DNA of 64,000 nucleotides from Gammaproteobacteria bacterium (GCA_016712635.1 JADJQS010000006.1:511216-575215), one strand, 5' to 3'. Numbered from the stretch's first letter, positions 15,704 through 49,540 are shown. Notes: a model not told the origin generated them from the letters alone. Made by a program: numbers and translations.

Positions 15704-15733
15704 GCTTACAGAATTTCCACGGAGGGAAATCCA

Positions 15734-19269: not shown

Positions 19270-19348
19270 GGGGACAGATTTTTATCTGTCCCCCGATATC
19301 GCAATGATGCCAGTACGCCTCACACCTAACGCCTCACACCTCACGCTC
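19270..19348. repeat. GGGGACAGAT hairpin (19270-19294) followed by a right-arm-only CCTCAC repeat block (19315-19348).
   Basis: ggggacagatttttatctgtcccc ... gcctcacacctaacgcctcacacctcacgctcg. Confidence 0.75.
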
Positions 19349-21967: not shown

Positions 21968-21972
21968 ACAAG

Positions 21973-23098: not shown

Positions 23099-23106
23099 AC
23101 CGGCTG

Positions 23107-24306
23107 GTGCATATCATGGGTCATCCGATAAATATCCTCCTTCTCAGCAAAGATCCCACCTTATTCGAGCAAAATGATGCTGTCATCGGTGACACAAGAA
23201 AGCGACACATCGCCTACTCGAATATACTGCAATCAAGGTACCCCGGAAGCCAAATAAAAGTCATAACCTACACAAAGAGAACTTCGCTACTTCAGCATGA
23301 GAAAATCAATCAATCTCTCTCGATTTTCGGGACCGCCTCTGCTCACCGCATCACCTATTTGGCCGGTGTGATAAGAATGCTGCCTAAAACGCTGGAGGAT
23401 GGATGGCGGCCAGATATCGTCACTGCTCAGACCCCATGGGAAGAAGGCATCGTCGGATACGTGATATCAAGAATATTCAATGCTAAGTTCATACTGCAAA
23501 TCCATTTCGATTTGTTTTCTGAGCACTGGCGAAAAGAAAACAGATTTAACCTGTGGCGTAACTTGATTGCGCGCGCATTGATCAAACGATCTGATGCTGT
23601 TCGAGTAGTTTCAGAATTCCAAAAACACCAACTGGTGGATTGCCTCGGAAAACCATCCGGCACGATCCGGGTTATACCTGTAGGGGTGAATTTTCAGCCA
23701 TTAGATGGTGAAAAGTCTGCATTCAAACGAAAGATAGCTATTTCATTGGAGGCTAAAAAAGTTGTCTTGTTTGTTGGTAAATTTTATGCACCAAAAAATC
23801 TCCAACTATGGATTGATGTTGCGCAGCTTATTAGCCGTGATAACCCAGACGTAATGTTTGTCATGGCAGGCAACGGGCCCATGTTTGGTGAGATAAGGGA
23901 GGCGGTCATCAACCGTGGACTATCAGATAGATTTATTTTCTTGGGTTATGTCAAGCATGAGGAATTGCCCGGAATATATGCGGCCGCCGATGTCTTTCTA
24001 CTTACCTCATATTATGAGGGATTTGGCAGAGTCGTCCTTGAGGCCTATCTAGCCAAAATCCCTGTTGTGAGTACCAAATGCGCCGGAACACTCGACCTCA
24101 TCGAATCAGGTGTCACTGGAATATTAGCTCCTGTTGGTGATGCACAAACGTTAGCAGATGGTGTGATAAACCTGCTCTCCGCTGATGAACTGAGGATGTC
24201 TTATGGGACTAAGGGACATGCGAGAGTGAATGTGAAATATGGTTTTGCTAACTTATCAAATAAGTTAGTCGACTTCTGGGGAAGTGTTTGCGATGAGTCA
24301 ACCTGA
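23107..24306 (+). CDS. GT4-family glycosyltransferase.
   Basis: 399 aa. EGFGRVVLEAYLAKIPVVSTKCAGTLDLIESGVTG motif. Confidence 0.8.
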   Translation: MHIMGHPINILLLSKDPTLFEQNDAVIGDTRKRHIAYSNILQSRYPGSQIKVITYTKRTSLLQHEKINQSLSIFGTASAHRITYLAGVIRMLPKTLEDGWRPDIVTAQTPWEEGIVGYVISRIFNAKFILQIHFDLFSEHWRKENRFNLWRNLIARALIKRSDAVRVVSEFQKHQLVDCLGKPSGTIRVIPVGVNFQPLDGEKSAFKRKIAISLEAKKVVLFVGKFYAPKNLQLWIDVAQLISRDNPDVMFVMAGNGPMFGEIREAVINRGLSDRFIFLGYVKHEELPGIYAAADVFLLTSYYEGFGRVVLEAYLAKIPVVSTKCAGTLDLIESGVTGILAPVGDAQTLADGVINLLSADELRMSYGTKGHARVNVKYGFANLSNKLVDFWGSVCDEST

Positions 24307-25150
24307 TTTTATCGGTATAGGAGCGCAAAAATCAGGTACTTCATGGATTTATGCGTGCCTACATGTACATCCTCAGGTTTGTATACCGCGTAAGGAAATA
24401 CATTTTTTCAGCAGAGAGCGAAACTGGTCTAAAGGATATGATTGGTATGCAGGAAACTTTGACGGCTGTCATGCGGGGCAGGTAATCGGTGAATTCTCAA
24501 CTTCATACTTGGCGGATGAGTACACGCCTGCGAGGATCCATAATAAATTTCCTGATGTGAAACTGGTCGTGTCTCTACGCAATCCAATTGACAGAGCCTA
24601 TTCCAATTATATTAACGATATCAAAACAGGTATTGTGTCCAGTTCTACGGACTTTCTGGATGCGTTGGATAGCCATCCTGAATACATGAACCAAGGTCAG
24701 TACGCGCGCCAAGTAAATCGTTACCTAGATTATTTTAAGCCAGCTCAATTGCTGATATTAATCTACGAGGATAGTTTGATCGATCCCGGGGACTATATAA
24801 AAAAAATATACAGATTTCTCAATATTGACCATGAATTTATACCTGAATTTATTCGTACAAAGATAAATCCTGCCAGGATTCCACGTCATGTCTGGATTGA
24901 TTCCGGGATAAGGGCTGTCTCCAGTTACCTGAGATCAAACGGGTTTCGTACTCTATTCTGGCAAATAAAAAAATCAGGCCTCGCGGAAAGAATTCGGACA
25001 CTGAATACAAGAATGGATATCAGACGCGCTGATGTGATAGACACTCAAACTAGACATTATTTGTATGAGAAATATGATATCCAGTCAGAAATTTCTGCTA
25101 TTTCAAAAATAATTGGAAGAGATCTTATCGAGTGGCGCATTCAAACATAA
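24293..25150 (+). CDS. Carbohydrate sulfotransferase (PAPS-dependent sulfotransferase domain).
   Basis: 5'-PSB motif IGIGAQKSGTSW and 3'-PB motif VVSLRNPIDRAYSNY. The start is probably the second ATG (MSQPDF) overlapping the upstream GT stop. Confidence 0.8.
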   Translation: MSQPDFIGIGAQKSGTSWIYACLHVHPQVCIPRKEIHFFSRERNWSKGYDWYAGNFDGCHAGQVIGEFSTSYLADEYTPARIHNKFPDVKLVVSLRNPIDRAYSNYINDIKTGIVSSSTDFLDALDSHPEYMNQGQYARQVNRYLDYFKPAQLLILIYEDSLIDPGDYIKKIYRFLNIDHEFIPEFIRTKINPARIPRHVWIDSGIRAVSSYLRSNGFRTLFWQIKKSGLAERIRTLNTRMDIRRADVIDTQTRHYLYEKYDIQSEISAISKIIGRDLIEWRIQT

Positions 25151-26204
25151 CAGTGATTTGCCAGGTTGTTGACGAGCATGATCCTATTAATGCAACAGCT
25201 GTCAGATGGATTCGTGTTCTGTCACAAAAGAATCAGGTAGGGAAAGTAACTGTCCTGGCATTAAAAGTCGGTGAATATAACTTGCCTGATAATACGAGAG
25301 TGTTCTCGTTTAGAGGAAGAAATCGCATTTCTACTTTGATTAAGTTCTATTCCCTGATAATAAAAGGAGTGATGGTAAATAAAACGGATTATTATTTTAT
25401 CTATCAGGGTGGCCCATATCCGTTGCTACTTTTACCATTTAAGCTTTTGGTGGTAAAAACGTATACCATTGGAAAGCACATCCACATATTACCTTTATGA
25501 TGAAATTATACGCGCGTTACTGCGACACCGTTGTATTTACTTCAACAACCAATGCATTTCCCATGCAATTACCCAATCTCAGAGTTATTGGGCAGGGCGT
25601 TGATACAGAAAAATTTCGGGTGTTGGGAAAGGAAAGAAATAAAGATCTTGTCATTGTTGGCAGGATTGCCCCGGTCAAGCGCTTGGAAAGCATAATTTTC
25701 ATATTGACGCATTTGAATCTCAAGTACGGAATAGCTCCGAAAGTAGATTTATATGGTCCGATATCAGGACAGGATAAGAAATATAAGGAGCACATAGACC
25801 ATCTAATCTGTGAGCAGAAATTGAATGATCAGATTATTTTTCATGGGCCAGTTAGGCAGGATGCCCTCCCGGAGATATTTAATACCCACAAGCTCCTTGT
25901 CAACTTTTCTGATACTGCATTGGATAGAGTTGTCGTCGAAGCTATGGCCTGTGGATTGCCAGTGTTCTCGACGAATAACTGCGTTAGAGAGATCATCCCC
26001 GACGCTTATCATGATATTCTGACTTGTGTTGACCAACACGAAAACCATGCGCTGCTTGCTGAATTGATCTACTCACTGCTTTTGCTGCCTGATGCCATCA
26101 GAACCCATATCGGCAGGGACCTAAGAGAAATTATATTACATCATCATAGTGATATAACCCTGTTCGACAGAATGTTAGCCGAAATCGGAAACTATGAAAA
26201 ATAA
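25132..26204 (+). pseudogene. GT4-family glycosyltransferase split over two frames (25132-25500 and 25497-26204).
   Basis: The N-domain piece ends ..GKHIHILPL*. The C-domain piece (VVEAMACGLPVFSTNN) starts in a different frame. Together about 357 aa, the size of a whole GT4. Confidence 0.5.
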
Positions 26205-26994
26205 ATTCTCGATAAAAATTGGCGTCAGAAACTCATTCATCATTGCCAATGGAATGTATAAAAACATCAGAAACTCACTGCCTGATAAGCGGATTGTCGC
26301 AATTCACGATATCAATGACTCGATCAGATTCCGAGATAAAATGCATTGGCTGCGCGAAACATATGACATTCTTAGTTTGGGCGATTTGCTCGAAACTAGC
26401 ATAGGCAACAAAACACAGATCGCCATAACATTTGATGACGGCTATCTGTCATGGCGTGATAATGTTATTCCGGTGCTGGTGGATCTCAATATTCCTGCCA
26501 CTTTTTTTATTTGCTCTGGTTTTGTTGGTCTTGATGAAATTGATGCAAGAAAGTTTGCTGTTAATTGCTTCAGGAGAAAACAGAAGCTGCTTCCACTTCA
26601 AGCAGAGCACATCAGATCGATATCTGATCATAAATTGTTCGAGATAGGTGGACACACGGCGCATCACCTGGATCTCGGAAAAGAGTATCCCACAGAAATT
26701 CTGATAGATGAAATTATAAGAGACCGTGAACTATTAGAGGATTGGACAGGCGATGATGTACGATGGTTCGCATATCCATTTGGAGGAAGAATTAATGTCT
26801 GTAATCAGACAAAAGAATTTGTCAGAAATACTGGTTATAGCGCTGCGTTTACTATCATTCCTAGATCAGCGAACGAGATCGAGGATTTCTATGAAATAGG
26901 GAGGGATAGCCTGGACATCTATGCATCAGATCTTTTATGGAGAAACTGGCTTAACGGCGGTTACGACATGATTAAGAAAACAAGGATTTCGTAA
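26194..26994 (+). CDS. Polysaccharide deacetylase (NodB homology, CE4 family).
   Basis: ITFDDGY, FFICSGFVG, GGHTAHH motifs. Confidence 0.8.
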   Translation: MKNKFSIKIGVRNSFIIANGMYKNIRNSLPDKRIVAIHDINDSIRFRDKMHWLRETYDILSLGDLLETSIGNKTQIAITFDDGYLSWRDNVIPVLVDLNIPATFFICSGFVGLDEIDARKFAVNCFRRKQKLLPLQAEHIRSISDHKLFEIGGHTAHHLDLGKEYPTEILIDEIIRDRELLEDWTGDDVRWFAYPFGGRINVCNQTKEFVRNTGYSAAFTIIPRSANEIEDFYEIGRDSLDIYASDLLWRNWLNGGYDMIKKTRIS

Positions 26995-27602
26995 TGAACA
27001 AGTTTGAATATGTGAGGAATATTATCCTTTCTGAACCAGTGAATAACAAAAGTCTGCTCGATGTCGGATGCAGAGGATGTGAATTAAAGTCTTATGTCGG
27101 AGATGTGGTTGCATACAAAGGTGTGGACCTATTCCAAAATCCATCGAATAGCGTTGACTACGTGTTGGATGTAGAAAATGGACTTCCCATGGAAAATAGT
27201 TCAAGTGACTATGTCGTAGCCTTGGATTTGGTTGAACATCTTAATGATTTTCAAGGCGGCTTAGAAGAATTACTGAGGGTGGCGCGAGAGAAACTCATCG
27301 TAATGCTTCCAAATATGGCTCACTGGGTTTTCAGGAAGGAATTCCTTTTTCATGGAAGGATCGGTGCAAAATATGATCTTTCATATGGAATGGGAAAAGA
27401 CCGACATCGCTGGTTCACTGTGTTGCCACAGACGGATGAATATATAAAAAGGTTTTGTGACGAAAATAATCTCGAGTTACAGGTCATCTGGTTTAATGGA
27501 GGAAGAAAGAAAGAACTATTCTATCGAGTAACGAAATTCCTGGGTTTTCCGCCATCAATAGGCGTGTGGGCATCACTTTATATAATGAAAAAAATGTCAT
27601 AA
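26994..27602 (+). CDS. Class I SAM-dependent methyltransferase.
   Basis: LLDVGCRGCE motif I, VVALDLVEHL. 202 aa. Confidence 0.7.
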   Translation: MNKFEYVRNIILSEPVNNKSLLDVGCRGCELKSYVGDVVAYKGVDLFQNPSNSVDYVLDVENGLPMENSSSDYVVALDLVEHLNDFQGGLEELLRVAREKLIVMLPNMAHWVFRKEFLFHGRIGAKYDLSYGMGKDRHRWFTVLPQTDEYIKRFCDENNLELQVIWFNGGRKKELFYRVTKFLGFPPSIGVWASLYIMKKMS

Positions 27603-27796
27603 ATATATCGTGCGTACACCATCATGCATGATGGAAACGAGAGCAGAGTTTCGTCGTAGAATTGAGTCGTTATCTGCGTCTAAGCACACCTTTACTATTC
27701 ATGGATTGTCTGTGTCGCATTAATCGATGCATTTACCCATCGCATATGGTCACTGGTCTCTCTCTTTTGATTCTTACTGGAAAATAAGAGAATCAA

Positions 27797-29059
27797 ATGC
27801 GTAAGATAGTATCAGATGTTGGGTACATGGGGTTCTCACAACTCCTTGTCGCACTGTCGCAGATAGCGCTCCAAGTCTATGTGGTCAGGACCACGACAGT
27901 TTATGAATATGGTGAGTACATAGGCAGTCTAGTCATAGTGACGTTAGTTGAAGCAATTTTTGTCGCAAGAGGCGGTGAACTGGCTTTGCGATATGTCGGC
28001 ACGCACTGGAATAAGAGTGATTTCATCACTGCTCGGCAATACGCAACAGCGATAATACGCATCGATAAATATGTAAACTGGTTACTTTATATCTTGCTCG
28101 TTACTTTGGCATTTGCGACCTATGAGGTGCTGAATTTAAATCTATATTACGTGATATTTCTTTCGCTTGTTATTCCAGCTCAGGTAGGTTACGGAGTGTA
28201 TAAAAGTCTATTCATAATTTCATCTAGACTCAGGGGGCAATCTGTATTTGAAATAATCTTCGCCGTCGTGCAGATATCTACAGGAGCCATTGGCGTTTAT
28301 TTATTCAGCATCCCTGGTTTGATTGCATCAGTTATTGGAACAGCTATGGTGAAGACTGTTTTAGCTAGGGTTATGACGGAAAGTTGGTGGCCTGATAACG
28401 TCAAAGGTCTGGATTCCCTTTCCACAAATAATAATATCAATATAACAACCTGGTGGAGCGACAGTATACATTCTATTATGCGAAATTCATTTTTCTCTGG
28501 GTCTAATCAAATAGACATAATCTTGCTCAATATATTCAGAGGTGCAGAAACAGTAGCTTTGTATAAAGTCGCAAAATCGTTATCTGCAATTCCTATAAAA
28601 ATTGCCGCCCCTGTCTGGGCGGCCTTACGTCCTCGAATCATGAAATCATGGAACAACGGCGACAGGGCGAGATTAGTCAAGATAATATTGACACCTTCAT
28701 TATCCATGCTGGCAGTTCTTCCCGTTATGCTGCTGCCTGCTTCGCTGTATGGTGATAAGTTTATTGCCATTATATACGGGCCTGACTATGCGTCCGCGAT
28801 AGACTCTATTCTTGTATTGCTCGTCGGTGTATGGATCTTTAATGTGACTACAGGTTGGTTCAGGTTCTGGATATTAATAATTAAGGATAGATTAGCAAGT
28901 ACAAATATATCGGCAATCCAGTTTTTTATGCTGCTAGTTCTAGGTCTGCTGTACGGAAAGGAAACAATTGTTTCAATGTCCGAGGTTGTGAGCGTAACCA
29001 TGATTGTCGTCAGCGTGATGTGCTGGTTTGAATTATTCAGAAAACTAAAAACGCTGTGA
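27797..29059 (+). CDS. wzx: Wzx-type O-unit flippase (MOP / polysaccharide biosynthesis protein family).
   Basis: 420 aa, about 12 predicted TM segments, hydrophobic throughout. Position within a GT cluster. Confidence 0.65.
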   Translation: MRKIVSDVGYMGFSQLLVALSQIALQVYVVRTTTVYEYGEYIGSLVIVTLVEAIFVARGGELALRYVGTHWNKSDFITARQYATAIIRIDKYVNWLLYILLVTLAFATYEVLNLNLYYVIFLSLVIPAQVGYGVYKSLFIISSRLRGQSVFEIIFAVVQISTGAIGVYLFSIPGLIASVIGTAMVKTVLARVMTESWWPDNVKGLDSLSTNNNINITTWWSDSIHSIMRNSFFSGSNQIDIILLNIFRGAETVALYKVAKSLSAIPIKIAAPVWAALRPRIMKSWNNGDRARLVKIILTPSLSMLAVLPVMLLPASLYGDKFIAIIYGPDYASAIDSILVLLVGVWIFNVTTGWFRFWILIIKDRLASTNISAIQFFMLLVLGLLYGKETIVSMSEVVSVTMIVVSVMCWFELFRKLKTL

Positions 29060-29184
29060 ACTCTCGTATTCAATGGCGAGAGAAGCTGCTATCGGCCATT
29101 GTTGGGTATCTAGAGGTCAATCAATCATGAGAAATCTGGCCATTAGTAACCCATTGTTTGTCTCATTAGTTCTCCCTCGTAGTA

Positions 29185-30315
29185 TTGATTGGTAATGTCC
29201 TTCTCAGCATTTCGAATACTGTATCCATGTTAAATATTATGTTCATTGTGCTAGCACATCTACTTGTCATTTACTCATTATTTAATAACGGTGTGCAACA
29301 GCGTGACTGGCTGAATCCAATAAACATAATTCTTCTGATTGGAATGGTGCGATTCAGTCTGCCTCTGCTTCTACTTCAATTTGGATCTCCAAGTATCGAG
29401 ATGTTCCAAAAGATGAATATCGGGCAAGGTGAGAACTGGCGTCATGCAAATATTCTTGCACTAGTCGGGTTGCTGGGCGTCGCTGCCGGTTGGAACATAA
29501 CGATTAGACCTTGGAGAAAAGCATGTCCCCATAGGCGGGAACTACCAAAGAGCGTTGCTTATTTGGCTGTGACAGGGATGCTAGCAGGCGCAATATTTTT
29601 GTCAGTTTTTATAGAAAGTAATTCTACACTCGAGGAAGCCATATTGACAGGCAGCTTCAGAGGTACTGATATACAGGCAGGCACCGGCAAGTATTTCCAT
29701 CTAGGCTTAATGTTAATTTCATGTAGCGTAATCCTCTCTTCGTATCTCATTAAACGAGGAAATGTATCCTATATGGTCGCACTCCTACCCGTGCTCATCG
29801 CCACGATTTTTTATTTCATTCTCGGTGGCAGGACCAGAGCGATTACACCGTTAATAGCTGGACTACTTGTAATTTGGTATGAAAGAGAAAATTCAACATT
29901 TACAGCAAAGAATACGTTTGTTTTGTTTATTCTTTTTCTTGGTTTGCTCATGTTTTATAGCGGGTCAGTGCTTTATCGTGCACGACTCGGATTGGAAGGG
30001 TTTGCTCATGGCCTGTCTTTTATAGGTCTTGTGCAATATCTGTCTACAGCGATATGGATGGAAATAGGTCAGTTGCATGCATTGGCCGGGTCTCTTCTAG
30101 TTGGGCCTGGCGTACTGGGAGGGTTGACATTTACCAAATTGCTTTGGCCTATCAGTGAGTTTCTCAATATACCCGGTAATAGTACAGGCATATATCTTGC
30201 GGAGACGCTTGTTTATCACAGCATACGCAGTCGGTGTATTTTTCCTGTCGAAGCTGCTAGGGTCACTGATAAAAAAATCATAATGATGAAGCAGAATATG
30301 ATTGTCAGAAAATAA
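29185..30315 (+). CDS. Wzy-like O-antigen polymerase (multi-TM membrane protein).
   Basis: 376 aa, highly hydrophobic with a larger loop region. Adjacent to wzx. No firm motif, so the assignment is by context. Confidence 0.5.
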   Translation: MIGNVLLSISNTVSMLNIMFIVLAHLLVIYSLFNNGVQQRDWLNPINIILLIGMVRFSLPLLLLQFGSPSIEMFQKMNIGQGENWRHANILALVGLLGVAAGWNITIRPWRKACPHRRELPKSVAYLAVTGMLAGAIFLSVFIESNSTLEEAILTGSFRGTDIQAGTGKYFHLGLMLISCSVILSSYLIKRGNVSYMVALLPVLIATIFYFILGGRTRAITPLIAGLLVIWYERENSTFTAKNTFVLFILFLGLLMFYSGSVLYRARLGLEGFAHGLSFIGLVQYLSTAIWMEIGQLHALAGSLLVGPGVLGGLTFTKLLWPISEFLNIPGNSTGIYLAETLVYHSIRSRCIFPVEAARVTDKKIIMMKQNMIVRK

Positions 30316-30349
30316 AATGGCTTCCAAATGACCAGTAAGGTTCGCCACG

Positions 30350-31303
30350 TTATGTGAGAATATCGTCATCGCTATTCTTCAAATATTCGAATGATTTCCT
30401 AATGCCATCCTCTAACTTGATAAGTTCTCTTTTTAACATCGATCTCATTATCGAGTTATCAGGCTTTCTTCGCGACATATCGCCTTCCTTCAATGGAGGG
30501 TAGTGTACAATCCTTGATCTTGAGTTTGTGATTTTCAAAACGAGCTTGGCCAGTTCTAAAATGGTGATTTCATTATCACTGCCGACATTCACCACGTCGT
30601 TTATACACAAATCGTTGGTGATAACGGTTTCGGTAAAATCAAGATTATCGTCAATGTAGCAGAATGTTCGTGTTTGTGAGCCATCACCATAAATGATCAA
30701 ATCCTCATTTCTTGACGCCCAATAGATAAATCTTGAAACGACAAAATCCTTGCTTTGAAGAGGCCCATATGTGTTGAAGAATCTGAAGATTGTGTACTTC
30801 AATCCATATTCTTTCTCATAAGTGCGGCAAAACGCCTCGCCGATATTCTTAACGATCGCATAAGGGAGCCTGGAATTCAGCGGTGTGGTTGCTTCTCTTT
30901 GTGGAATCTCAACCGGCTCACCATAGACTTCAGAGGAAGATGAGTATATGACACGTTCTACTCCCGTATTTTTTGCCAAGTCCAGTATATTTTTAATTCC
31001 TTCTATATCGTTTAAGACTAGTTTGGGGTTGGTCAATGTGCGCTGGACACCCACTACTGCGGCATAATGAAAAATTAAATCGAAATTGCCAGAAATAACC
31101 ACTGGAGCGATGTCGTTAAAATCATTGACATTGGCCTTGATAAATTTCCAATTATTATATGTACGGTCTGGCAATTTACCGGCCATGCCCGTAGAGAGAT
31201 CGTCGACGATAACGACCTTGTATTCTTGGTTTTGTACAAGGCGTCTGGCCAAGCTTCCGCCAATGTTACCCGCGCCACCGGTTATTAGAATGTTTTTTCT
31301 CAT
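30350..31303 (-). CDS. NAD-dependent epimerase/dehydratase (extended SDR; UDP-sugar 4-epimerase / UDP-glucuronate decarboxylase-like).
   Basis: ILITGGAGNIGGSLARRL Rossmann motif and a YxxxK-type catalytic region (YAIVKNIGE). 317 aa. Confidence 0.75.
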   Translation of the reverse strand: MRKNILITGGAGNIGGSLARRLVQNQEYKVVIVDDLSTGMAGKLPDRTYNNWKFIKANVNDFNDIAPVVISGNFDLIFHYAAVVGVQRTLTNPKLVLNDIEGIKNILDLAKNTGVERVIYSSSSEVYGEPVEIPQREATTPLNSRLPYAIVKNIGEAFCRTYEKEYGLKYTIFRFFNTYGPLQSKDFVVSRFIYWASRNEDLIIYGDGSQTRTFCYIDDNLDFTETVITNDLCINDVVNVGSDNEITILELAKLVLKITNSRSRIVHYPPLKEGDMSRRKPDNSIMRSMLKRELIKLEDGIRKSFEYLKNSDDDILT

Positions 31304-31467
31304 AATGTTTCCTGTTAATAGTTTATGGTTTTTCTCTTAACTCCAGTATGTACTTGTAGACTTTCATTGTCTCGGTGTACATCTTTTCGCGCTGAATTTT
31401 CCCGTCACAAGCTCTTTTCCCTTGCTACCGTATCCGAAGCGGATCGCCTGGCTTCCCGCCAGAATAC

Positions 31468-32457
31468 TCAGCTTCCTGCGAACGATTCAGGATCGTTGGG
31501 TGGTATCAACATCCCGCTCTCGTTATCAGCGACAATTTCAGGTATTGCGCTCACATTGGTTGCGATAACTGGCTTTCCTGAGGACATAGCTTCAAGTAGT
31601 ACTAGACCAAATCCCTCGGTAACTGAGGTTAGGGCAAATATATCGAATGCATTAATAACCAGAGGAATGTCTTGACGAAAGCCAGCCCAGATCACATGAT
31701 CCTTGAGTCCAAGCTTCTCAGAGTGACTTCTTAGCTTTTCGTGAAGCGGACCTGATCCCACGATTACTAGTTTTGTCTTGGGGGTAGTCACCTGATTTAT
31801 GAATTTGGCATAACCGGTTAGCATGACGTCGATTGCTTTGGCTGGCACCAAGCGTGCTACGCTTCCAATTAATAATGTCGGGCCGTTGCCCCCCCACTCA
31901 GCGCGGAGATTTTCTACTTTTTCTCGATCAACATTCTGGAAGCAGTGAGGATTAAGACCATAATGTACTACAGTGATTCGCCGGTTGGTTGAGGCTGGCC
32001 AGCGCTTTGAGTAGTATCGTTTGACTGAATCCGAGATCGCGATGATCCCGTCTGCACGACTGACCACCCACCTTTCAAGCATGTTTGCTCCCGGACCACC
32101 ATAAAAACGAGATTCGTTATGCCTCGAGATCAGGAATGGCAACTGCGGGGATTTCAATAATGCAATGCGAGCGTATAATTCGGCGGGCGCCAAATGAGCA
32201 TGAACGATATGAGGAGCGAAACTTGCAATCGCATTTTTGAGTCTCCAAAGAGGCCCGAGTTCCCCGTACTGCGATAATCCCAGAGGAAAGACGTGCACCC
32301 CAAGACTCTCTAGTTCTGCTTTCCAATAGCCATCACCCTTTAGATATGCGCAAGCGACTTCGCAGCCAAAATTCCTGATTTGTCCTTCGATCAAATCTCG
32401 TAGATGATTCTCTGCGCCGCCGCGGTTTATCGTTGTAATAATATGCAATATTCTCAT
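31468..32457 (-). CDS. GT4-family glycosyltransferase.
   Basis: MRILHIITTINRGGAENHL N-terminus and EGFGLVLLEAMSSGKPVIATNVSAIPEIV C-terminal motif. Confidence 0.8.
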   Translation of the reverse strand: MRILHIITTINRGGAENHLRDLIEGQIRNFGCEVACAYLKGDGYWKAELESLGVHVFPLGLSQYGELGPLWRLKNAIASFAPHIVHAHLAPAELYARIALLKSPQLPFLISRHNESRFYGGPGANMLERWVVSRADGIIAISDSVKRYYSKRWPASTNRRITVVHYGLNPHCFQNVDREKVENLRAEWGGNGPTLLIGSVARLVPAKAIDVMLTGYAKFINQVTTPKTKLVIVGSGPLHEKLRSHSEKLGLKDHVIWAGFRQDIPLVINAFDIFALTSVTEGFGLVLLEAMSSGKPVIATNVSAIPEIVADNESGMLIPPNDPESFAGS

Positions 32458-32551
32458 GATAAATAGCCTTATCTCCTGTTTCTATATTAGTATAAATCAT
32501 AAGACGATGTCATTGTGCTGATCAAGATTTGCACGGCAACGAGATAAGAAC

Positions 32552-33397
32552 ATGCAGATTCCTTGGTGGGCGAAACTCTGTGCAAAAATGGCTCTATCTA
32601 GATTGCCATTTGGGTATTCCGTCTGGCAGAAACTTGGTCTGTTCCGGCATGGCAATATGGATGCTGGTGAGTATGCAATCCGGATTTTTCAAAGCCATAT
32701 GGAGAAATCGTGTTTTCAACAACGGCTTGCTGGAAAGACAATTCTAGAACTAGGTCCGGGTGACAGTCTCGCGACCGCAATAATTGCCGCAGGATATGGC
32801 GCGCGGTCTATACTCATTGATAGTGGTCGGTTTATACGTAAGGATATCAACTCCTATGTTGAATTAGTGGGCGCGCTTGCCAAGAGAAACTTGCCTCACA
32901 TAGACATCTCATGCTGTCGTGATGTAGATGAAATTCTTGAACTGTGCAATTCCAGGTATATGACAGAGGGGTTGGACAGCCTCAGAATGATCGAAAAGGA
33001 ATCAGTAGACCTAATTTTCTCCCAAGCCGTGCTTGAACATATAAGAAGATACGATTTTCTGGAGACAATGAGAGAATGCCGTAGAATCCTCCGGGAAGGC
33101 GGGGTCTGTTCGCACCAAGTTGATCTTCGCGATCATCTGGGTGGATCCCTGAATAATCTGCGCTTCAGTGAACGGGTCTGGGAGTCTGCTTTTTTTTCAA
33201 AGTCAGGATTCTATACCAACCGGATCCAATACAGCGAAATGATTGGGCTATTTGCGCAGGCTGGTTTTAAAGTTGAAGTAACCGATATCTGTCGTTGGGA
33301 CACACCGCCAACTCGGAGAAGCCGGCTTTCTACGGAGTTCATCAGAATACCGGATGAAGAACTGTGTATATCTATGTTCGACGTATTGCTACGCTAA
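32552..33397 (+). CDS. Class I SAM-dependent methyltransferase.
   Basis: ILELGPGDS motif I, DLIFSQAVLEHI. Confidence 0.7.
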   Translation: MQIPWWAKLCAKMALSRLPFGYSVWQKLGLFRHGNMDAGEYAIRIFQSHMEKSCFQQRLAGKTILELGPGDSLATAIIAAGYGARSILIDSGRFIRKDINSYVELVGALAKRNLPHIDISCCRDVDEILELCNSRYMTEGLDSLRMIEKESVDLIFSQAVLEHIRRYDFLETMRECRRILREGGVCSHQVDLRDHLGGSLNNLRFSERVWESAFFSKSGFYTNRIQYSEMIGLFAQAGFKVEVTDICRWDTPPTRRSRLSTEFIRIPDEELCISMFDVLLR

Positions 33398-34543
33398 CTA
33401 TGATTCTCCGTATATGAAAGCAAACAGAGAAAAAAAACTTCTGTACTATATAACAGAAGACTGGTATTTCGTTTCTCATCGACTTCCATTGGCGATTTCT
33501 GCAAAGAATGCTGGATACGATGTTTGCATCGTGACGCGTGTGAGAAACTACGGAAATATTATACGTTCCTCTGGATTAAAACTCATTCCTTTTGAAAATT
33601 CACGAAGCAGTATAAATCCTCTGAGAGAACTTCTGACCCTGTTCAGGTTGATTGCATTGTTTATGCGCGAAAAGCCGGATATCGTTCACAACGTTGCCAT
33701 AAAACCCGTTCTGTACGGTGGAATAGCCGCACGCTTGGTTAAGACACCACAAGTAGTCAATGCGCTCGCGGGCATGGGTTGATATTCGCATCTAGCACCG
33801 GCTTGGCCCGCTGGATTAAGCCTGCAGCTCGCCAAATGCTCAGGTTCGTGCTTACCTCTGGAACCGTACTAGTACAGAATCAAGATGACGCAGCATTTCT
33901 AACCCAGATAGGTGTGCCTCGGGCGAATATACGACGTATCGCTGGTGCCGGGGTTGATCTGACACTGTTCCACGCAAGCCCCGAGAAGACTGGATTGATT
34001 ACGGTTGTTCTACCAGCACGATTGCTCTGGGATAAAGGCGTGGGGGAGTTTGTCGAGGCTGCGCGCATCATCAGAAAGCAGGGAATAAACGCGCATTTTG
34101 CGCTTGCAGGAGAATCCGACCATGCCAATCCCGCATCGGTCTCACCGAAGACTATTGCTGAGTGGGTTTTGGAAGGAGTTGTTGACCATCTCGGGTGGGT
34201 TGAAAACATGCCGTCTCTATTTGCTCAGAGCCATATAGTATGCTTGCCTTCGTATTATGGTGAAGGAATCCCGAAATCGCTGATTGAGGCTGCAGCGTCT
34301 GGACGGCCTATCGTCACGACCGATATGCCAGGATGTCGTGAGATCGTCCGGCATAATGAAAATGGATTTCTGGTCCCCCCCCGCAATGCTAAAGCACTCG
34401 CGAAAGCGCTGGTGCGCCTAATAGAAGACCCCGTGCTTCGACAACAGATGGGGGCGCAGAGTCGCATTCGCGCCGAGAAAGAGTACGGAGTGGAAACAGT
34501 CAATCGGCAGACGCTAGCACTCTATGAGGAGGCTCTGAGTTGA
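33354..34543 (+). pseudogene. WbuB-like GT4 glycosyltransferase interrupted by one frameshift at about 33775-33782 (ORFs 33354-33782 and 33779-34543).
   Basis: ..NALAGMG* in one frame continues as IFASSTGLARW.. in the next, matching the conserved GLGY(I)F block of this GT subfamily. The C-terminus has EGIPKSLIEAAASGRPIVTTDMPGCREIV. Confidence 0.55.
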
Positions 34544-35505
34544 GGGTGTTAGTTACCGGTGCTACTGGGTTTGTCGGTTCTTCATTGGTAGACCAGCTGG
34601 TTCGTGATGGGATTCACGATGTCAGGGTTGCATTGAGGAGAGACAGGCCTAGTTTGAGCGATCAAGTTGAGCATGTCATCGTCGGTGAAGTCGCCGGGGA
34701 AACAGTTTGGCGACAGGCGCTGCGCGGTATCGATACAGTGATTCATCTCGCCGCCCGGGTACACGTCATGACAGACAGCGTAGCGAATTCTTCCGCAGAA
34801 TATCACCGCGTAAATGTTGATGGCACCCTTAACCTCGTTCGCCAGGCAGTAGATGCTGACGTCAAGCGTATTATTTATCTGAGCTCAATCAAGGTGAACG
34901 GGGAAGAGACATTGGCAGGCCAGCCGTACTATGCAGATGATCAACCTTCGCCAGCAGGATCATATGCTGTATCCAAATATCGAGCAGAGGAAGGGATCCG
35001 TCGATTAATTTCGGGGGCTGATATGAGTGCTGTAATAATTCGCCCTACTTTGGTATACGGAGCTGGAGTGAAGGGAAATTTTCTCAACATGATGCACTGG
35101 CTATCCCGCGGTATACCTATGCCTTTAGGATCGATTCACAATAGCCGCAGCCTTGTAGCGCTCGATAATTTGGTAGATCTAATTATCAAATGTATTGAGC
35201 ATCCTGCAGCTGCAGATCAAGTATTCCTCGCTGGAGATGGCGAGGACTTATCCACTACAGAACTTCTTCGACGGCTTGGGGGTTTTCTTGGCAAACCCGC
35301 CCGTCTCGTGCCGTTTCCACATGCGGTCTTGAACATGATTGCTCGCGTATCCGGAAGACGTGATGTTGCACAACGATTGCTGACCTCGCTACAGATCGAT
35401 ATCAGGAAAAACTGGGAAATCCTCGGCTGGAAACCGCCGGTCACTCTGAATCAGGGTTTGGAAACTGTCACACGCTGGTACTTAAATGAATCACGAAGTT
35501 ACTGA
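34540..35505 (+). CDS. NAD-dependent epimerase/dehydratase (WbpV/WbpK-like UDP-sugar epimerase or reductase).
   Basis: VLVTGATGFVGSSLVDQL Rossmann, YAVSKYRAE catalytic YxxxK. Position before wbpL-wbpM as in Pseudomonas O-antigen loci. Confidence 0.75.
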   Translation: MRVLVTGATGFVGSSLVDQLVRDGIHDVRVALRRDRPSLSDQVEHVIVGEVAGETVWRQALRGIDTVIHLAARVHVMTDSVANSSAEYHRVNVDGTLNLVRQAVDADVKRIIYLSSIKVNGEETLAGQPYYADDQPSPAGSYAVSKYRAEEGIRRLISGADMSAVIIRPTLVYGAGVKGNFLNMMHWLSRGIPMPLGSIHNSRSLVALDNLVDLIIKCIEHPAAADQVFLAGDGEDLSTTELLRRLGGFLGKPARLVPFPHAVLNMIARVSGRRDVAQRLLTSLQIDIRKNWEILGWKPPVTLNQGLETVTRWYLNESRSY

Positions 35506-43735: not shown

Positions 43736-43848
43736 ATGGGGACAGATTTATTTATTGCGTGAAAAGGGGCGGATCCTGATCCGCCCCCTAATGTAATGTC
43801 GGTCAGTGTGCAAATTCATATTCAATAAATAAATCTGTCCCCATTTAA
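43736..43848. repeat. Nested inverted-repeat structure. A 24-nt perfect inverted repeat (aaatggggacagatttatttattg / caataaataaatctgtccccattt) encloses a GC hairpin (ggggcggatcctgatccgcccc).
   Basis: Read directly. Shares the GGGGACAGAT core with the hairpin family. Likely terminator / REP-like. Confidence 0.7.
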
Positions 43849-43867: not shown

Positions 43868-44536
43868 ATGGTGCTTCCGTATAAGCTTCTCGTGTTCGAC
43901 TGGGATGGGACCTTGATGGATTCGGAGGCGCGCATCGTCAGTTGCCTGTCGATGACCTTATCCGATCTCGCCTTGCCCGCGCTCGGGCGCGATGAACTGC
44001 TCAACGTGATCGGGCTCGGACTGCCGGAGGCGGTTGCCACGCTGCTGCCGGAGGCCGATGCGGGACTGATCCGCCGCTTCATCGATCGTTACCGTTACCA
44101 TTTCCTGTCCGACCATCACGCCGCCGCGGTTTTGTTCCCGGGTGCGAAGGAGACCCTCACCGCGCTCGATCGCCGCGGCTACCTGCTGGCGGTTGCAACC
44201 GGCAAGGGCAGACGGGGGCTGGACCAGTCCCTGGAGGACACCGGCTGCGGCGGCCTGTTCTCGCTCTCGCGTTGCGCGGATGAAACCGCTTCCAAGCCGA
44301 ATCCGCGTATGCTGATCGAGATCATGGATGTGCTCGGCATCGCCCCGGACGAGACCCTGATGATCGGCGATACCGAATATGACATGCAGATGGCGCACAA
44401 TGCGGGCGCGCGCGCGCTGGCGGTGAGCTACGGCGTCCATGCGCGTGAACGCCTGCTCGCCTGCGAACCGCTCGGGTGCCTGGACGTGATCACCGATATA
44501 CTTCCCTGGCTCGAAGGCGTGAGGCGTGAGGCGTGA
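43868..44536 (+). CDS. HAD-superfamily hydrolase (phosphoglycolate-phosphatase-like).
   Basis: LLVFDWDGTLMDS motif I, VATGKGRRG, MIGDTEYDM. The C-terminus (..VRREA*) and stop are contributed by the heptamer array. Confidence 0.7.
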   Translation: MVLPYKLLVFDWDGTLMDSEARIVSCLSMTLSDLALPALGRDELLNVIGLGLPEAVATLLPEADAGLIRRFIDRYRYHFLSDHHAAAVLFPGAKETLTALDRRGYLLAVATGKGRRGLDQSLEDTGCGGLFSLSRCADETASKPNPRMLIEIMDVLGIAPDETLMIGDTEYDMQMAHNAGARALAVSYGVHARERLLACEPLGCLDVITDILPWLEGVRREA

Positions 44537-44722
44537 GGCGTGAGGCGTGAGGCGTGAGGCGTGAGGCGTGAGGCGTGAGGCGTGAGGCGTGAGGCGTGAG
44601 GCGTGAGGCGTGAGGCGACAAGAGTTTGCTCGCCGCATTTTCCTTGTCCAGCACTTTTTTAAATTAGTATTTTTCTTCTTTTACCCCTAACTCCTCATCC
44701 CTCACGCCTAACCGAATACCCT
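44515..44722. repeat. Heptamer element copy K. A pure (GTGAGGC) array of about 14-15 units, a roughly 70-nt AT-rich loop and a CCTCAC right arm, upstream of sppA.
   Basis: gaggcgtgaggcgtgagg... x14 then gacaagagtttgctcgccgcattttccttgtccagcacttttt..ttttacccctaactcctcatccctcacgcctaacc. Confidence 0.85.
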
Positions 44723-44776
44723 TTCAGTGTCTCCATCCATTACAATCATGCATCGGGTAACAACAAGGACCGGGTA

Positions 44777-45784
44777 ATGTCTGACGAGAACAAACAGCAG
44801 GATCCATGGCTGGGTGAGGCGCAGGCGCCGCGCGCAGGTAACGGCAAGCAGGGCGCCGTGGAAGAGACGTGGGCACGCAGCGTGCTGGAAACGCTGGTAC
44901 AGGCTACCCTCAAGGAGCAGCGCAGCGCCCGCCGCTGGGGTGTCTTTTTCAAGCTGATGTTCCTCGGATATCTGTTTCTGATCCTGTACACCTACTGGCC
45001 GGGGAAGCTGGTCGACGAGAGCCTGTCGGGCCGGCATACCGCCCTGATCGACATCAACGGCGTAATCGCCGAGGACCGCGACGCCAGTGCGGACTACATC
45101 GTCGACAGCCTGCGTGAAGCCTTCGACAACAAGCACGCCGCCGCCATCCTGCTGCGTATCAACAGCCCCGGCGGCAGCCCGGTGCAGTCGGGCTATGTCA
45201 ACGACGAGATCGCGCGCCTGCGCGCGCAGCATCCCGACAAGAAGGTGTACGCCGTGATCACCGACATCTGCGCCTCCGGCGGCTATTACATCGCGGCGGG
45301 CGCTGACGAGATCTACGCGGACAAGGCAAGCATCGTGGGCTCCATCGGCGTGCTGATGGACGGCTTCGGTTTCGTGCAGACGCTCGACAAGCTCGGCATC
45401 GAGCGCCGCCTGATCACGGCGGGCGAGAGCAAGGGCTTCCTCGATCCGTTCTCGCCGATGAAACCCGATGACGAACACCATATCCGCACGATGCTGGCGA
45501 ACATACACCAGCAGTTCATCGATACCGTGAAGAAGGGGCGCGGGGACCGCCTCAAGGACGATCCCAGCCTGTTCACCGGGCTGGTGTGGACCGGCGAGGA
45601 AAGCCTCAAGCTCGGCCTGGTCGACGGCCTGGGGAGCCCCAGCTACGTCGCGCGCGAAATCATCGGCGCGGAAGACATCATCGACTACACCTATCAGCCG
45701 CCGTACTTCCAGCGCTTCGCCGAACGCATCGGCGCAGCGGCGGCACAGGGAGTGGCGGGGATGCTGAAGGTGGAACTGAGGTGA
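44777..45784 (+). CDS. sppA: Signal peptide peptidase SppA (36K type, ClpP/crotonase fold).
   Basis: ICASGGYYIAAGADEIYADKASIVGSIGV catalytic Ser region. TM near the N-terminus. The stop TGA lies in the first repeat unit. Confidence 0.85.
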   Translation: MSDENKQQDPWLGEAQAPRAGNGKQGAVEETWARSVLETLVQATLKEQRSARRWGVFFKLMFLGYLFLILYTYWPGKLVDESLSGRHTALIDINGVIAEDRDASADYIVDSLREAFDNKHAAAILLRINSPGGSPVQSGYVNDEIARLRAQHPDKKVYAVITDICASGGYYIAAGADEIYADKASIVGSIGVLMDGFGFVQTLDKLGIERRLITAGESKGFLDPFSPMKPDDEHHIRTMLANIHQQFIDTVKKGRGDRLKDDPSLFTGLVWTGEESLKLGLVDGLGSPSYVAREIIGAEDIIDYTYQPPYFQRFAERIGAAAAQGVAGMLKVELR

Positions 45785-45968
45785 GGCGTGAGGCGTGAGG
45801 CGTGAGGCGTGAGGCGTGAGGCGTGAGGCGTGAGGCGTGAGGCGTGAGGCGTGAGGCGTGAGGCGACAAGAGTTTGCTCGCCGCATTTTCCTTGTCCAGC
45901 ACTTTTTGAATTAGTATTTTTGTTCTTTTACCCCTGACACCTCACCCCTCACGCCTCACGACTCACTC
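45781..45968. repeat. Heptamer element copy L. A (GTGAGGC) array of about 12 units plus the same loop and right arm as copy K, between the convergent 3' ends of sppA and maf.
   Basis: Near-identical loop to copy K (a few substitutions). The array is 2-3 units shorter. The right arm runs into the maf stop. Confidence 0.85.
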
Positions 45969-46602
45969 AAAGTACCTTGACACCCTCCGCCTCGAGCATC
46001 CGCGCCAGCCGCATCAGCGGCAGGCCGATGAGCGCCGTCGGGTCGGGGCCTTCGATCCGTTCCAGCAGGGCGATGCCGAGCGATTCGGATTTGAAGGCTC
46101 CGGCGCAGTCATAGGGTTGCTCGCGCCGCAGATAGGACTCGATCGCCTCCGGGTCCAGCCTGCTGAACGTCACGCTGCAGGTCACGGCATCGACCTGGAG
46201 CCGGTTCTTAGCCGCATTCAACAGGCACAGCGCGGTATAAAACTGCATTGTCCGCCCCGAGGCGGCCGTCAATTGCGCGACAGCGGCGGAATGGCTGCCC
46301 GGTTTGCCAACCCGATGGCCGTCGAGCACCGCCACCTGGTCGGACCCGATGATGAGAGCCGCGGGATGGTCCGGGGCGATGCGCCGCGCCTTGGACTCCG
46401 CGAGCCGGCGCGCCTGGGCCTCCGGCGTTTCGCCGTCCAGCGCACGCTCGTCCACGTCGGGCGAGAGCGCGGTGAATTCCAGCCCCAGGCGCCGCAAGAG
46501 CGCCTGCCTGAAGCGCGAGCTGGAGGCGAGCACCAGGGGGGGTGGCGGGGCGGCGGGTGCCTGGGTCATGGCCTGATTCCGAATTCCTTGATCTGCCGTC
46601 AT
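45967..46602 (-). CDS. maf: Maf-like nucleoside triphosphate pyrophosphatase.
   Basis: LVLASSSRFR..LL.RLGL N-terminus. 211 aa. Conserved neighbour of yceD/rpmF. Confidence 0.8.
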   Translation of the reverse strand: MTADQGIRNQAMTQAPAAPPPPLVLASSSRFRQALLRRLGLEFTALSPDVDERALDGETPEAQARRLAESKARRIAPDHPAALIIGSDQVAVLDGHRVGKPGSHSAAVAQLTAASGRTMQFYTALCLLNAAKNRLQVDAVTCSVTFSRLDPEAIESYLRREQPYDCAGAFKSESLGIALLERIEGPDPTALIGLPLMRLARMLEAEGVKVL

Positions 46603-46692
46603 TTTAACCGGGTATCCTTGCGACGCCCGGCACAGCCCAATTTTGTTAATGGATTTTGACAGTTACGGCATCTGAGCCTATCATGTGCCGCT

Positions 46693-48503: not shown

Positions 48504-49468
48504 TGTACGCGCGCATCACGGGCACGGGCGGCTATCTGCCCGCCAGGGTGCTGTCCAACGCCGAACTCGAGCGTATGGTCGACACCACCGACCAGTGGAT
48601 CGTCGAGCGCACCGGCATCCGCACGCGTCATATCGCCGCCCATGGCGAGACCACCTGCGACTTGGCCGAGGCCGCGGCGCGCCGTGCGATCGAGGCAGCA
48701 GGCCTCGTGCCCGCCGACATCGACCTCATCATCGTCGCGACCACCACGCCGGACAAGGTGTTTCCCAGCACGGCCTGCCTGCTCCAGCAGCGGCTCGGCA
48801 TCCACGGTCCCGCCGCCTTCGACATCCAGGCCGTGTGCACCGGTTTCGTCTACGCACTCAGCGTGGCCGACAAGTTCATCCGCACCGGCAGCGCGCGCTG
48901 CGCACTGGTCGTCGGCGCTGACACCCTTTCGCGCATCATCGACTGGCAGGACCGGTCCACCTGCGTCCTGTTCGGCGACGGTGCCGGCGCGGTGGTCCTG
49001 GAGGCGGCCGCGGAGCCCGGCATCCTGTCGACGCACCTGCACGCCGATGGCCAGTACCAGGAGATGCTGATGGTTCCCGAAGGCGTCTCGCAGGGTTATG
49101 AAAGCGTGCAGGAAGGCAGCGCATTCATCAAGATGCAGGGCGGCGAGGTATTCAAATTCGCGGTGAACTCCCTGGAACAGCTCGTCGACGAGACGCTGGT
49201 GGCCAACGGAATGCAACGGGACGACATCGACTGGCTGGTCCCGCACCAGGCCAATATCCGCATCATCACCGCCACCGCGCGCAAGCTGAAGATGTCCATG
49301 GAGCGCGTCGTCGTGACCGTGGATACCCATGGCAACACCTCGGCGGCGTCGATACCCCTCGCGCTCGACGTCGCCGTTCGCGACGGCCGCATCAAGCGCG
49401 GCGAGACCCTGCTGTTCGAGGCTGTCGGCGGCGGCTTCACCTGGGGTTCTGCGCTGGTTAAATATTAG
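48503..49468 (+). CDS. fabH: 3-oxoacyl-ACP synthase III.
   Basis: The internal start [13 protein letters not shown] overlaps the plsX stop. The upstream 115 codons of the ORF-track model are spurious. Cys-His-Asn active-site context. Confidence 0.9.
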
Positions 49469-49540
49469 TGAGGCGTGAGGCGAGAGGCGTGAGGGGTAAA
49501 TTCTTTTTTCCGCCTCACACCTCACTCCTGACGCCTCACC
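49467..49540. repeat. Compact heptamer-arm element copy M between fabH and fabD.
   Basis: tagtgaggcgtgaggcgagaggcgtgagg ggtaaattcttttttcc gcctcacacctcactcctgacgcctcacc. Confidence 0.8.

Follow-up and report, generated by a model that had tools for sequence, protein, structure and literature searches.

In a 64,000-nucleotide stretch of DNA from a gammaproteobacterium (GCA_016712635.1, JADJQS010000006.1:511216-575215; the whole stretch is referred to as the window hereafter), the gene sppA, which encodes an S49 signal peptide peptidase, is bracketed by two repeat blocks, each opening with a long and perfect array of the heptamer GTGAGGC. These blocks belong to a lineage-wide family of heptamer hairpins. 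We consider it likely that they are residents that have been expanded by slippage and altered by conversion of a loop, and that they represent a near-neutral punctuation of gene boundaries. The coordinates of all features are collected in Table 1.

The two blocks have the same layout: the array (the left arm or G-arm) is followed by an AT-rich loop of about 70 nt, and then by a right arm (C-arm) made of degenerate CCTCACN units. Both arrays were detected by Tandem Repeats Finder with a period of 7 and 100% matches, with 14.7 copies upstream of sppA and 12.1 copies downstream; parsing into units gave 14 full units for the upstream left arm (44519-44615). Directly after both arrays, the same 38-mer, GACAAGAGTTTGCTCGCCGCATTTTCCTTGTCCAGCAC, was found (exact at 44617 and 45865), whereas shuffled sequences predict none. 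The right arms consist of 4 and 5 units, respectively, and the loop plus right arm is 94% identical between the copies. The first-pass annotation had described two direct copies with pure arrays of different unit number, a nearly identical loop and right arm, and repeat-encoded stop codons for both sppA and the gene preceding it, and in all of this it was correct. The preceding gene encodes a HAD-family hydrolase ending in ...EGVRREA*, and its TGA lies within unit 3 of the upstream array; the TGA of sppA belongs to unit 1 of the downstream array. The gene order is rne-rluC-HAD-sppA-maf-yceD-rpmF-plsX-fabH. The identity of these genes agrees with the domains of their homologs: a 222-aa HAD ortholog in the relative L004 carries the Pfam HAD_2 and Hydrolase domains, PF01343 is present in the sppA homologs, whose names are SppA or S49 peptidase, and a maf ortholog carries the PF02545 Maf domain.

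The sppA pair belongs to a wider family, of which about a dozen other sites in the window had been overlooked by the first-pass annotation. When GTGAGGNGTGAGG was searched with at most one mismatch, 69 matches were found in the window, as compared with 0.26 expected. About 13 sites share the layout (GTGAGGN)~4 - loop - (NCCTCAC)~4, including solo arms and one site built on another heptamer. The complete pairs are nine of the GTGAGG type and one of the GGACTGA type, the latter lying between gmhA and cysC. The arms are mostly uniform in length: 16 of the 20 consist of exactly 4 units, and the outliers are the left arms at sppA (14 and 12 units in the unit parse). All seven elements that were folded as RNA, namely, five others and both sppA elements (truncated to the last four array units), gave long hairpins with the arms paired. 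Their energies ranged from −42 to −56 kcal/mol, with z-scores of −3.7 to −7.8; the truncated upstream and downstream sppA elements gave −42 kcal/mol (z = −5.3) and −56.2 kcal/mol (z = −7.1), respectively. The elements built on other heptamers fold alike. Rfam at the gathering thresholds gave no matches in the window, and at E ≤ 1 only far-sub-threshold matches to plant miRNA precursors, which reflect the long hairpin. Sites of the GGACTGA type were also observed outside the window, in two of the relatives described below (L141, 11530-11680 and 15503-15624; L005, 5543-5700).

The position of the elements relative to stop codons is distinctive. The unit carries a TGA, and its length of 7 is not divisible by 3, so that whichever frame runs into a G-arm meets a stop within 21 nt; the complementary strand, (GCCTCAC)n, has no stops in any frame. 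Owing to the palindromic structure, it is the 5′ arm that bears the stops, whichever strand is read; for instance, the downstream right arm at sppA, read on the minus strand, is a G-arm abutting the stop codon of the convergent gene maf. Among the ten G-arms in the window, nine include or overlap the stop at which the incoming gene ends, and the tenth starts 5 nt past the stop. Unit 1 is overlapped by the stop of the gene before the element at 1046-1163 and by the stop of fabH at 49468-49539. No elements were found between divergent genes in the window. To the other side of the elements, the solo C-arm at 19318-19344 precedes a transporter gene whose start has no obvious Shine-Dalgarno (SD) sequence, and at several other C-arms the distance from the end of the arm to a start codon is 10-16 nt. 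A search of metagenome contigs with (GTGAGGC)4 gave at least 120 contigs with GC contents of 34-77%. Among the matches listed, an inverted CCTCAC arm was present within 600 nt in 27 of the 118 evaluable arrays, and an open reading frame (ORF) of at least 100 codons was ended within the first three units in 50 of the 118 arrays with four or more units (42%), as compared with 5.9% at random positions of the same contigs. From these counts, the placement of (GTGAGGC) arrays at stop codons appears to be strongly non-random. The stop-free C-rich strand also gives rise to long spurious antisense ORFs, e.g., one of 392 aa antisense to sppA (44708-45886, minus strand).

Such placement may suggest a post-transcriptional module acting through ribosomes or Rho, in which long unpaired arrays would tune ribosome loading or coupling on the sense transcript and would terminate antisense or convergent read-through. 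The GUGAGGC unit can be read directly from the sequence as an SD-like GAGG located 8 nt before a GUG that overlaps UGA (GUGA), and iterated units would thus form mini-cistrons of 5 codons. The (GCCUCAC)n strand is C-rich and G-poor, like Rho-loading sites, and the C-arms end 9-16 nt before several starts, often without an obvious SD sequence. A translational role was also proposed for the TAACTGA repeats (MacGregor 2015, PMC4679880). However, most arms are fully paired (4 units with 4 units) and leave no free units, long arrays occur at very few loci, and the anti-SD sequence of the host 16S rRNA lies outside the window. This explanation is an inference from the unit sequence, and we regard it as unlikely.

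For comparison among strains, relatives were gathered by protein search, and their loci were taken from NCBI, ENA, JGI and Logan assemblies; a contig search with SppA peptides yielded only relatives at 52-59% identity, and no record matched the SppA of the window or P0121 as an exact protein. A ManC with 100% identity to that of the window is encoded on a 584,161-bp contig of an NCBI metagenome assembly labelled "Gammaproteobacteria bacterium", from which the window comes, and the SppA cluster member MBK8163360.1 is found on this contig too. The relatives are denoted by locus numbers, and the identities below are those of the sppA DNA. In L003 (96.5%), 12 units are followed upstream by the loop found in the window, and the contig breaks off at the downstream repeat. 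L013 and L014 (94%) have at least 18 units upstream (the contigs start within the array), followed by a different loop, and 6 units downstream with the loop type of the window. L004 (85.5%) has about 21 units upstream and 11 downstream, and a third copy of the loop type lies at fabH-fabD with 7 units, where the window has a short loop between arms of four. L135 (87%) has 2 units on either side. In L005-L012 (86%), 3 or 4 units of ATGAGGC are found upstream and GGACTGA-like repeats downstream; in L136 and L137 (85%), a palindrome of GGGTGAT or GGGTAAT heptamers is found upstream and a GTGAGG-type element downstream. Finally, L138 and L139 (83%) have no element upstream, and their sppA-maf interval holds a small hairpin of the ordinary kind. 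In L005, a gene for a 900-aa P-type cation ATPase, flanked by GGACTGA-like heptamers, was also observed between sppA and maf (5690-8392).

Two features emerge from this comparison. One is that the sites are old: elements occupy both flanks of sppA in L004, L013/14, L135 and L136/137, and the sppA elements are thus long-standing residents of both intergenic sites, down to sppA identities of about 83-87%. In L005, an element of the GTGAGG type is present on the upstream side alone. Positions are conserved elsewhere as well. The 21-kb syntenic locus L141 retains elements at tyrA-aroA, at aroA-cmk, in manC, around the ORF for a 23S-rRNA-IVS protein (the bracket of G-arm and C-arm lies at 12765-13208 there) and, as a solo C-arm, before the transporter. 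At the manC-gmd site, the arms are of the GGACTGA type in L141 and of the GTGAGG type in the window, which suggests that both arms can switch the heptamer type jointly and yet remain complementary. Another feature is that the unit number is hypervariable. It ranges from 3 (2 in L135) to about 21 upstream and from 2 to 12 downstream, and the first-pass annotation's proposal that strains be compared for repeat number was answered: the number is not uniform (12, 14.7, at least 18, about 21, and 3 or 4 units upstream). The eight contigs L005-L012, obtained from different samples, have 0 mismatches over 1020 positions of sppA and identical flanks, and differ only in having 3 or 4 units. Unit number therefore outpaces point substitution.

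This variability speaks in favor of a contingency locus, in which the upstream array would serve as a phase or rheostat switch, and slippage would alter sppA transcription through promoter geometry or through read-through from the HAD gene. Contingency loci of host-adapted pathogens (Haemophilus, Neisseria and Moraxella) carry slippage repeats in reading frames, in −35/−10 spacers or in 5′ untranslated regions, and these repeats switch surface or restriction-modification genes. The sppA arrays resemble them in the hypermutable unit number; moreover, long arrays persist here in several lineages, and the array lies about 160-260 bp before the sppA start. The first-pass annotation had placed the upstream array in the sppA promoter or 5′ region and had proposed that slippage changes the promoter spacing. 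The array was found, rather, where the HAD gene terminates, and only HAD coding sequence lies 5′ of it.

The candidate promoter and leader of sppA are found outside the element. In the 8-taxon alignment, the sole conserved non-coding block 5′ of sppA reads GAATAC(C/A)C...TTTACAATC...AAGGA...ATG, with GAATAC to TTTACAATC at 44714-44748; this region contains GAATACCC, a TTACAAT box (44740-44746) and an SD-like AAGGA motif (44765-44769). The block is kept in seven of the eight taxa, including the element-free L138, and at the equivalent position of L004 the promoter scan called a promoter-like site, TACACA-18-TACAAT. The conserved TACAAT block is located 3′ of the right arm, so that the loop and right arm part it from the array, and no sigma-70-like site overlapping either of the arrays was called by the scan, whether in the window or in L004 and L013. 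Thus, a change in unit number cannot alter the −35/−10 spacing; nor can it alter the HAD or SppA protein, because the stop codons fall within the first 1-3 units. The downstream array lies between convergent genes with no promoter nearby, and yet it is equally variable. The same elements are found beside housekeeping genes across the window, and sppA is an atypical contingency gene. Unlike the repeats of contingency loci, the arrays are placed where genes end, and their unit changes cause no frame shift; variability in unit number is shared with such loci, but placement in a reading frame or in a promoter spacer is not. For analogous repeats, phase variation was judged unlikely by Rehm et al. 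(2015, PMC4692102). A contingency locus is therefore quite unlikely, and the switch proposed by the first-pass annotation retains only a residual possibility, namely, an influence of arm length on read-through or on the fate of the RNA. The loop core was also considered as a minus-strand promoter, CTTGACAG (with a −35 box TTGACA recognized by eye), and was rejected: its −10 box (CAAACT) is poor, and the site was not called by the scan. Separately, a strong and conserved sigma-70-like promoter, TTGACA-17-TATCAT (11/12), was observed before yceD-rpmF-plsX at 46656-46684 (L004, 11871-11899; L013, 2123-2151).

The two copies at sppA resemble a fresh direct duplication of 200 bp, and this can be explained by the copying of the downstream loop over the upstream loop. 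In the sppA tree, the window groups with L003 (96.5%), and L013 joins next (94%). Between the window and L003, the upstream loops are 100% identical. To the downstream loops, the upstream loop of the window shows an identity of 94% (window) and 93% (L013); however, its identity to its positional ortholog, the upstream loop of L013, is only 65%, despite the 94% identity of sppA. The signature CAAGAGTTTGCTCG occurs in all downstream and fabH-type loops of all taxa and is missing from every other upstream loop, and the last bases before CGAATACCC retain likeness to the upstream sequence of L013. On these comparisons, the most parsimonious account is a single conversion event in an ancestor shared by the window and L003, in which the downstream loop and most of the right arm overwrote the upstream ones. 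The conversion may have been primed by the identical arrays, and its tract may have stopped close to the outer edge of the right arm.

The same comparisons bear on the idea that the 200-bp copies are the ends of an inserted or duplicated sppA unit, or a miniature inverted-repeat transposable element (MITE) inserted twice. Two direct copies with 94% identity around one gene, and a related loop at a third site (fabH-fabD) in L004, speak in its favor. However, the HAD-sppA-maf synteny is conserved in all relatives, element-free ones included, and sppA as a mobile cassette was ruled out because this synteny holds with and without elements. Elements with divergent loops already occupy both positions in L013, L004 and L135. 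Visual inspection of the elements in the window revealed no target-site duplications at their ends, as would mark a MITE, and the positions are conserved across species rather than polymorphic. A metagenome search for the array-loop junction gave no exact matches, so there is no sign of wide dispersal of the sppA loop type. A recent duplication or mobile cassette is therefore very unlikely. The first-pass annotation had also raised the deletion or duplication of sppA through the repeats; since the two copies recombine, such events are possible, but no such product was found in any locus examined. An assembly artefact, in which repeat collapse or expansion in the metagenome-assembled genome (MAG) would have created the long pure arrays, can practically be dismissed: although the short-read contigs of relatives break exactly at the arrays (the end of L003, 1299 bp, and the 5′ ends of L013 and L014), arrays occur at the same two positions in independent NCBI, ENA, JGI and Logan assemblies, and at 85-103 bp they are within read length, so that their exact unit number, but not their existence, is uncertain.

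Some copies are found inside coding sequences. Three intragenic in-frame copies occur in the window, two in manC and one in an fcl-like epimerase gene. When ManC of the window was compared with the Thermotoga enzyme (2x5s), insertions of 22 and 14 aa were found exactly at the two element sites. Among the ManC homologs, variable-length insertions are present in relatives of at least 79% identity, and none are found at 75% or less. In one of them (P0133), the second insertion carries one extra LTPHASP, which corresponds to 21 nt or three units; no smaller length change would keep the frame. In the manC element at 13361-13437, the unit that would give an in-frame TGA reads TCA, and a matching CCTGAC is present in the opposite arm. 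Besides the solo C-arm within the fcl-like epimerase ORF, a different C-arm encodes the first residues of that ORF.

We return to the favored explanation, that of resident hairpins at gene boundaries. In these elements, the stems are short tandem heptamer arrays, (GTGAGGN)n and (NCCTCAC)n, separated by a variable loop and having a modal arm of 4 units. Directly shown are the membership in the family, the potential to form hairpins, the placement at stop codons, the conserved positions, the hypervariable unit number, the conversion at sppA and the location apart from the conserved block 5′ of sppA. The left arms at sppA would have grown into pure microsatellites by replication slippage, presumably through slipped-strand mispairing, and the arms would be kept complementary by pairing selection or by template switching in quasi-palindromes. 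If the elements act at all, they may do so as hairpin punctuation: the 5′ arm, with its all-frame TGA, could coincide with the stop codon of a gene running into it, or take its place, and pairing of the arms would give the preceding gene a 28-bp stem, as RNA or DNA, at its 3′ end. Such a stem could stabilize the 3′ end, insulate neighbors or attenuate read-through in the manner of repetitive extragenic palindromic (REP) sequences. The change in unit number at sppA is most likely near-neutral.

Several points weigh against this explanation. We infer both the post-transcriptional role and the neutrality from the arrangement of the elements. Long left arms recur, with 12-21 units upstream of sppA in the window, L003, L013/14 and L004, and 11-12 units downstream in the window and L004; this recurrence could mean selection rather than mutational persistence. 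The loop core, TTTTTCCTGTCAAG(Y)AC, is more conserved across taxa than the remaining loop, which hints at a constraint outside the explanation. The intrinsic terminator scan found none on the elements: T-runs occur within the loop, ahead of the 3′ arm, and a U-run after the stem is absent, so the stems are not classical intrinsic terminators. The matched variants in manC (GTCAGGC/GCCTGAC) could result from pairing selection or from template switching, which are indistinguishable here. Like the conserved loop core, the four-unit mode and the recurrent long left arms at sppA fall outside the explanation.

The elements can be compared with several known systems. REP sequences and their composites (BIME, REPIN), found in Enterobacteria and Pseudomonas, are high-copy, imperfect intergenic palindromes that are located at gene 3′ ends and within operons and form stable transcribed hairpins. 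Their stems are unique sequences of 20-40 nt, with a GT[AG]G head recognized by the RAYT transposase, and REPs near stop codons reportedly affect translation and mRNA stability. The heptamer elements resemble them in being high-copy and mostly extragenic palindromes, though three copies are intragenic, and in having arms that begin with GTGAGG; they differ in having stems built of tandem heptamers and arms whose length changes through slippage of units. The Rickettsia palindromic elements (RPEs) are palindromes of unique sequence, 100-150 bp in length, which also occur in frame within genes and add peptide segments while leaving the protein intact. The in-frame copies in manC and the epimerase gene are reminiscent of RPEs, but they are heptamer arrays that change in length by steps of 21 nt.

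The closest known kin of the GTGAGGN elements are the dispersed heptamer repeats GGGAATC of Xanthomonas and GGGGA(C/T)T of Nostoc (the STRR sequences), described by Rehm et al. (2015, PLoS One, PMC4692102). In that work, about 185 dispersed loci are reported, mostly intergenic, with a clear four-unit mode, a range of 2-26 units and few long arrays; 70-75 convergent inverted pairs per genome are capable of forming stem-loops. The repeats are rare between divergent genes. The positions are conserved between species, while unit number and sequence vary; no link to surface genes or mobile elements and no function were found there. The GTGAGGN elements share with this class the dispersed tandem heptamers, the four-unit mode, the inverted pairs, the proximity to stop codons and the conserved positions. 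They differ in that the unit has only GG tracts, so that runs of G3-4 are lacking and the quadruplex rationale fits poorly; in that the unit carries TGA and thus provides stops in all three frames; and in that the host is an uncultured gammaproteobacterial MAG of the activated-sludge type. In-frame copies in enzymes and conversion between neighboring copies, both found here, are unreported in that work (PMC4692102). The TAACTGA direct repeats of marine Beggiatoaceae, cyanobacteria and Bacteroidetes are, according to MacGregor (2015, PMC4679880), intergenic and usually of 2-6 units, with up to 43 on occasion. As described there, the forward orientation gives all-frame stops and overlaps gene ends by a few codons, while the reverse orientation is translatable and sometimes in frame in ORFs; the repeats lie mostly just 5′ of start codons, a lack of structure is predicted for them, and one inverted case is reported. 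The all-frame-stop logic is common to both families, and a related heptamer, GGACTGA, is present in the window at 18504-18630; the GTGAGGN arrays are distinguished by being paired as hairpins and by abutting stop codons. A literature search for GTGAGGC yielded only primer sequences.

Table 1. Coordinates of the heptamer elements, their parts and the associated genes in the window
Feature	Position	Strand	Remarks
Complete element, unidentified gene/pheA interval	1046-1163	+	4 G-units, loop, 3 C-units; fold z = −5.5
Complete element, tyrA-aroA intergenic	4280-4375	+	4 and 4 units; tyrA stop in unit 3; position kept in L141
Complete element, aroA-cmk intergenic	5745-5852	+	aroA stop in unit 3; position kept in L141
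manC	12859-14388		Pfam NTP_transferase, ManC beta-helix, MannoseP_isomer
Complete element, in frame within manC	13361-13437	+	4 and 4 units; fold z = −6.7
Solo C-arm, 4 units, in frame in manC	13718-13744	+	Encodes SSPLTPDASP
Complete element, manC-gmd intergenic	14385-14561	+	manC stop is the TGA of unit 1
G-arm (15670-15696) and C-arm (16099-16125) around 23S-rRNA-IVS-protein ORF	15670-16125	+	
Solo C-arm, 4 units, in frame in fcl-like epimerase ORF (16093-17088)	16814-16840	+	
Palindrome of the same architecture, heptamer GGACTGA/TCAGTCC, gmhA-cysC intergenic	18504-18630	+	Fold z = −6.5
Solo C-arm, (CCTCACN)4, before CitMHS/TrkA_C transporter	19318-19344	+	Ends 9 nt 5′ of ATG
HAD-family hydrolase gene	43868-44536	+	ORF list; last 5 codons (VRREA) and TGA encoded by heptamer units 1-3
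Upstream left (G) arm, (GTGAGGC) 14.7 units	44515-44617	+	Tandem Repeats Finder
Upstream AT-rich loop, downstream type, starting with GACAAGAGTTTGCTCG	44617-44685	+	Loop comparison
Upstream right (C) arm	44686-44712	+	4 degenerate CCTCACN units pairing with 4 G-arm units
Conserved sppA 5′ region outside the element, candidate promoter and leader	44714-44776	+	8-taxon alignment
sppA, S49 signal peptide peptidase, 335 aa	44777-45784	+	ORF list; stop is the TGA of downstream unit 1
Downstream left (G) arm, (GTGAGGC) 12.1 units	45781-45865	+	Tandem Repeats Finder, unit parse
Downstream AT-rich loop	45865-45932	+	97% to downstream loop of L013, 74% to that of L004
Downstream right (C) arm, 5 units	45933-45966	+	Minus strand is a G-arm abutting the maf stop codon
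maf, convergent with sppA	45967-46602	−	ORF list; TGA stop (45967-45969) adjoins right arm
Complete element, fabH-fabD intergenic	49468-49539	+	4 and 4 units, short loop; fold z = −7.8

Some other features of the window were observed. The IVS-protein ORF bracketed by a G-arm and a C-arm lies between gmd and the fcl-like gene (15734-16096; 120 aa, PF05635). The loop of the element at 14385-14561 contains an unrelated REP-like hairpin. This hairpin belongs to a separate family, TTCCCGCTTTCGCGGGAATGAC, with copies at 14490-14511 (the one inside the loop), 17140-17161 (minus strand) and 17201-17222, the last two forming an inverted doublet after the fcl-like gene. Another palindrome family, based on GGGGACAGATTT, gave 7 matches as compared with 0.33 expected, including those at 43736-43845, 2256-2303, 5550-5561 and 19270-19294. 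In the rluC-HAD interval it forms a MITE-like unit of about 110 bp with perfect 22-bp terminal inverted repeats, ATGGGGACAGATTTATTTATTG, and small-hairpin versions are found after cysC and in the relatives L004, L138 and L141. Between the CitMHS transporter gene and a Polysacc_synt_2 gene lies a low-GC island (21500-35500; 41-46% GC, as compared with 60-66% in the backbone), probably a cluster for polysaccharide or O-antigen synthesis that was gained by horizontal transfer; no heptamer elements were found in it.

A more far-reaching possibility is that the punctuation is functional. An all-frame stop would then be combined with an SD-like (GAGG) arm that pairs with an anti-SD-like (CCUC) arm, the length of the arms would tune translational termination or re-initiation, the stability of transcripts or Rho loading where genes meet, the arrays at sppA would act as a rheostat, and the four-unit preference would arise from a common structural or protein-binding need. 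We give this possibility little credence at present. If it were true, the expanded arrays around sppA would constitute a heritable rheostat for the expression of sppA, HAD and maf, and the four-unit preference shared with the Xanthomonas and Nostoc repeats would reflect a structural or protein-binding requirement rather than the G-quadruplex.

With GTGAGGN, a new sequence joins the heptamer-repeat class. The range of this little-known class, whose dispersed arrays are often paired as hairpins at stop codons, is thereby widened by one repeat unit and by a lineage of uncultured gammaproteobacteria. The quadruplex explanation of the four-unit mode is weakened, because GTGAGGN shows the same mode without G3 tracts. 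The elements also have practical consequences: the arrays break short-read assemblies and spawn long spurious antisense ORFs, and stop codons embedded in repeats affect gene calling in MAGs. Finally, the window offers clean small cases of a microsatellite that changes faster than any substitution across 1 kb, of gene conversion between elements bracketing one gene, and of in-frame arrays within an enzyme that change by 21-nt steps and from which the in-frame TGA has been removed.

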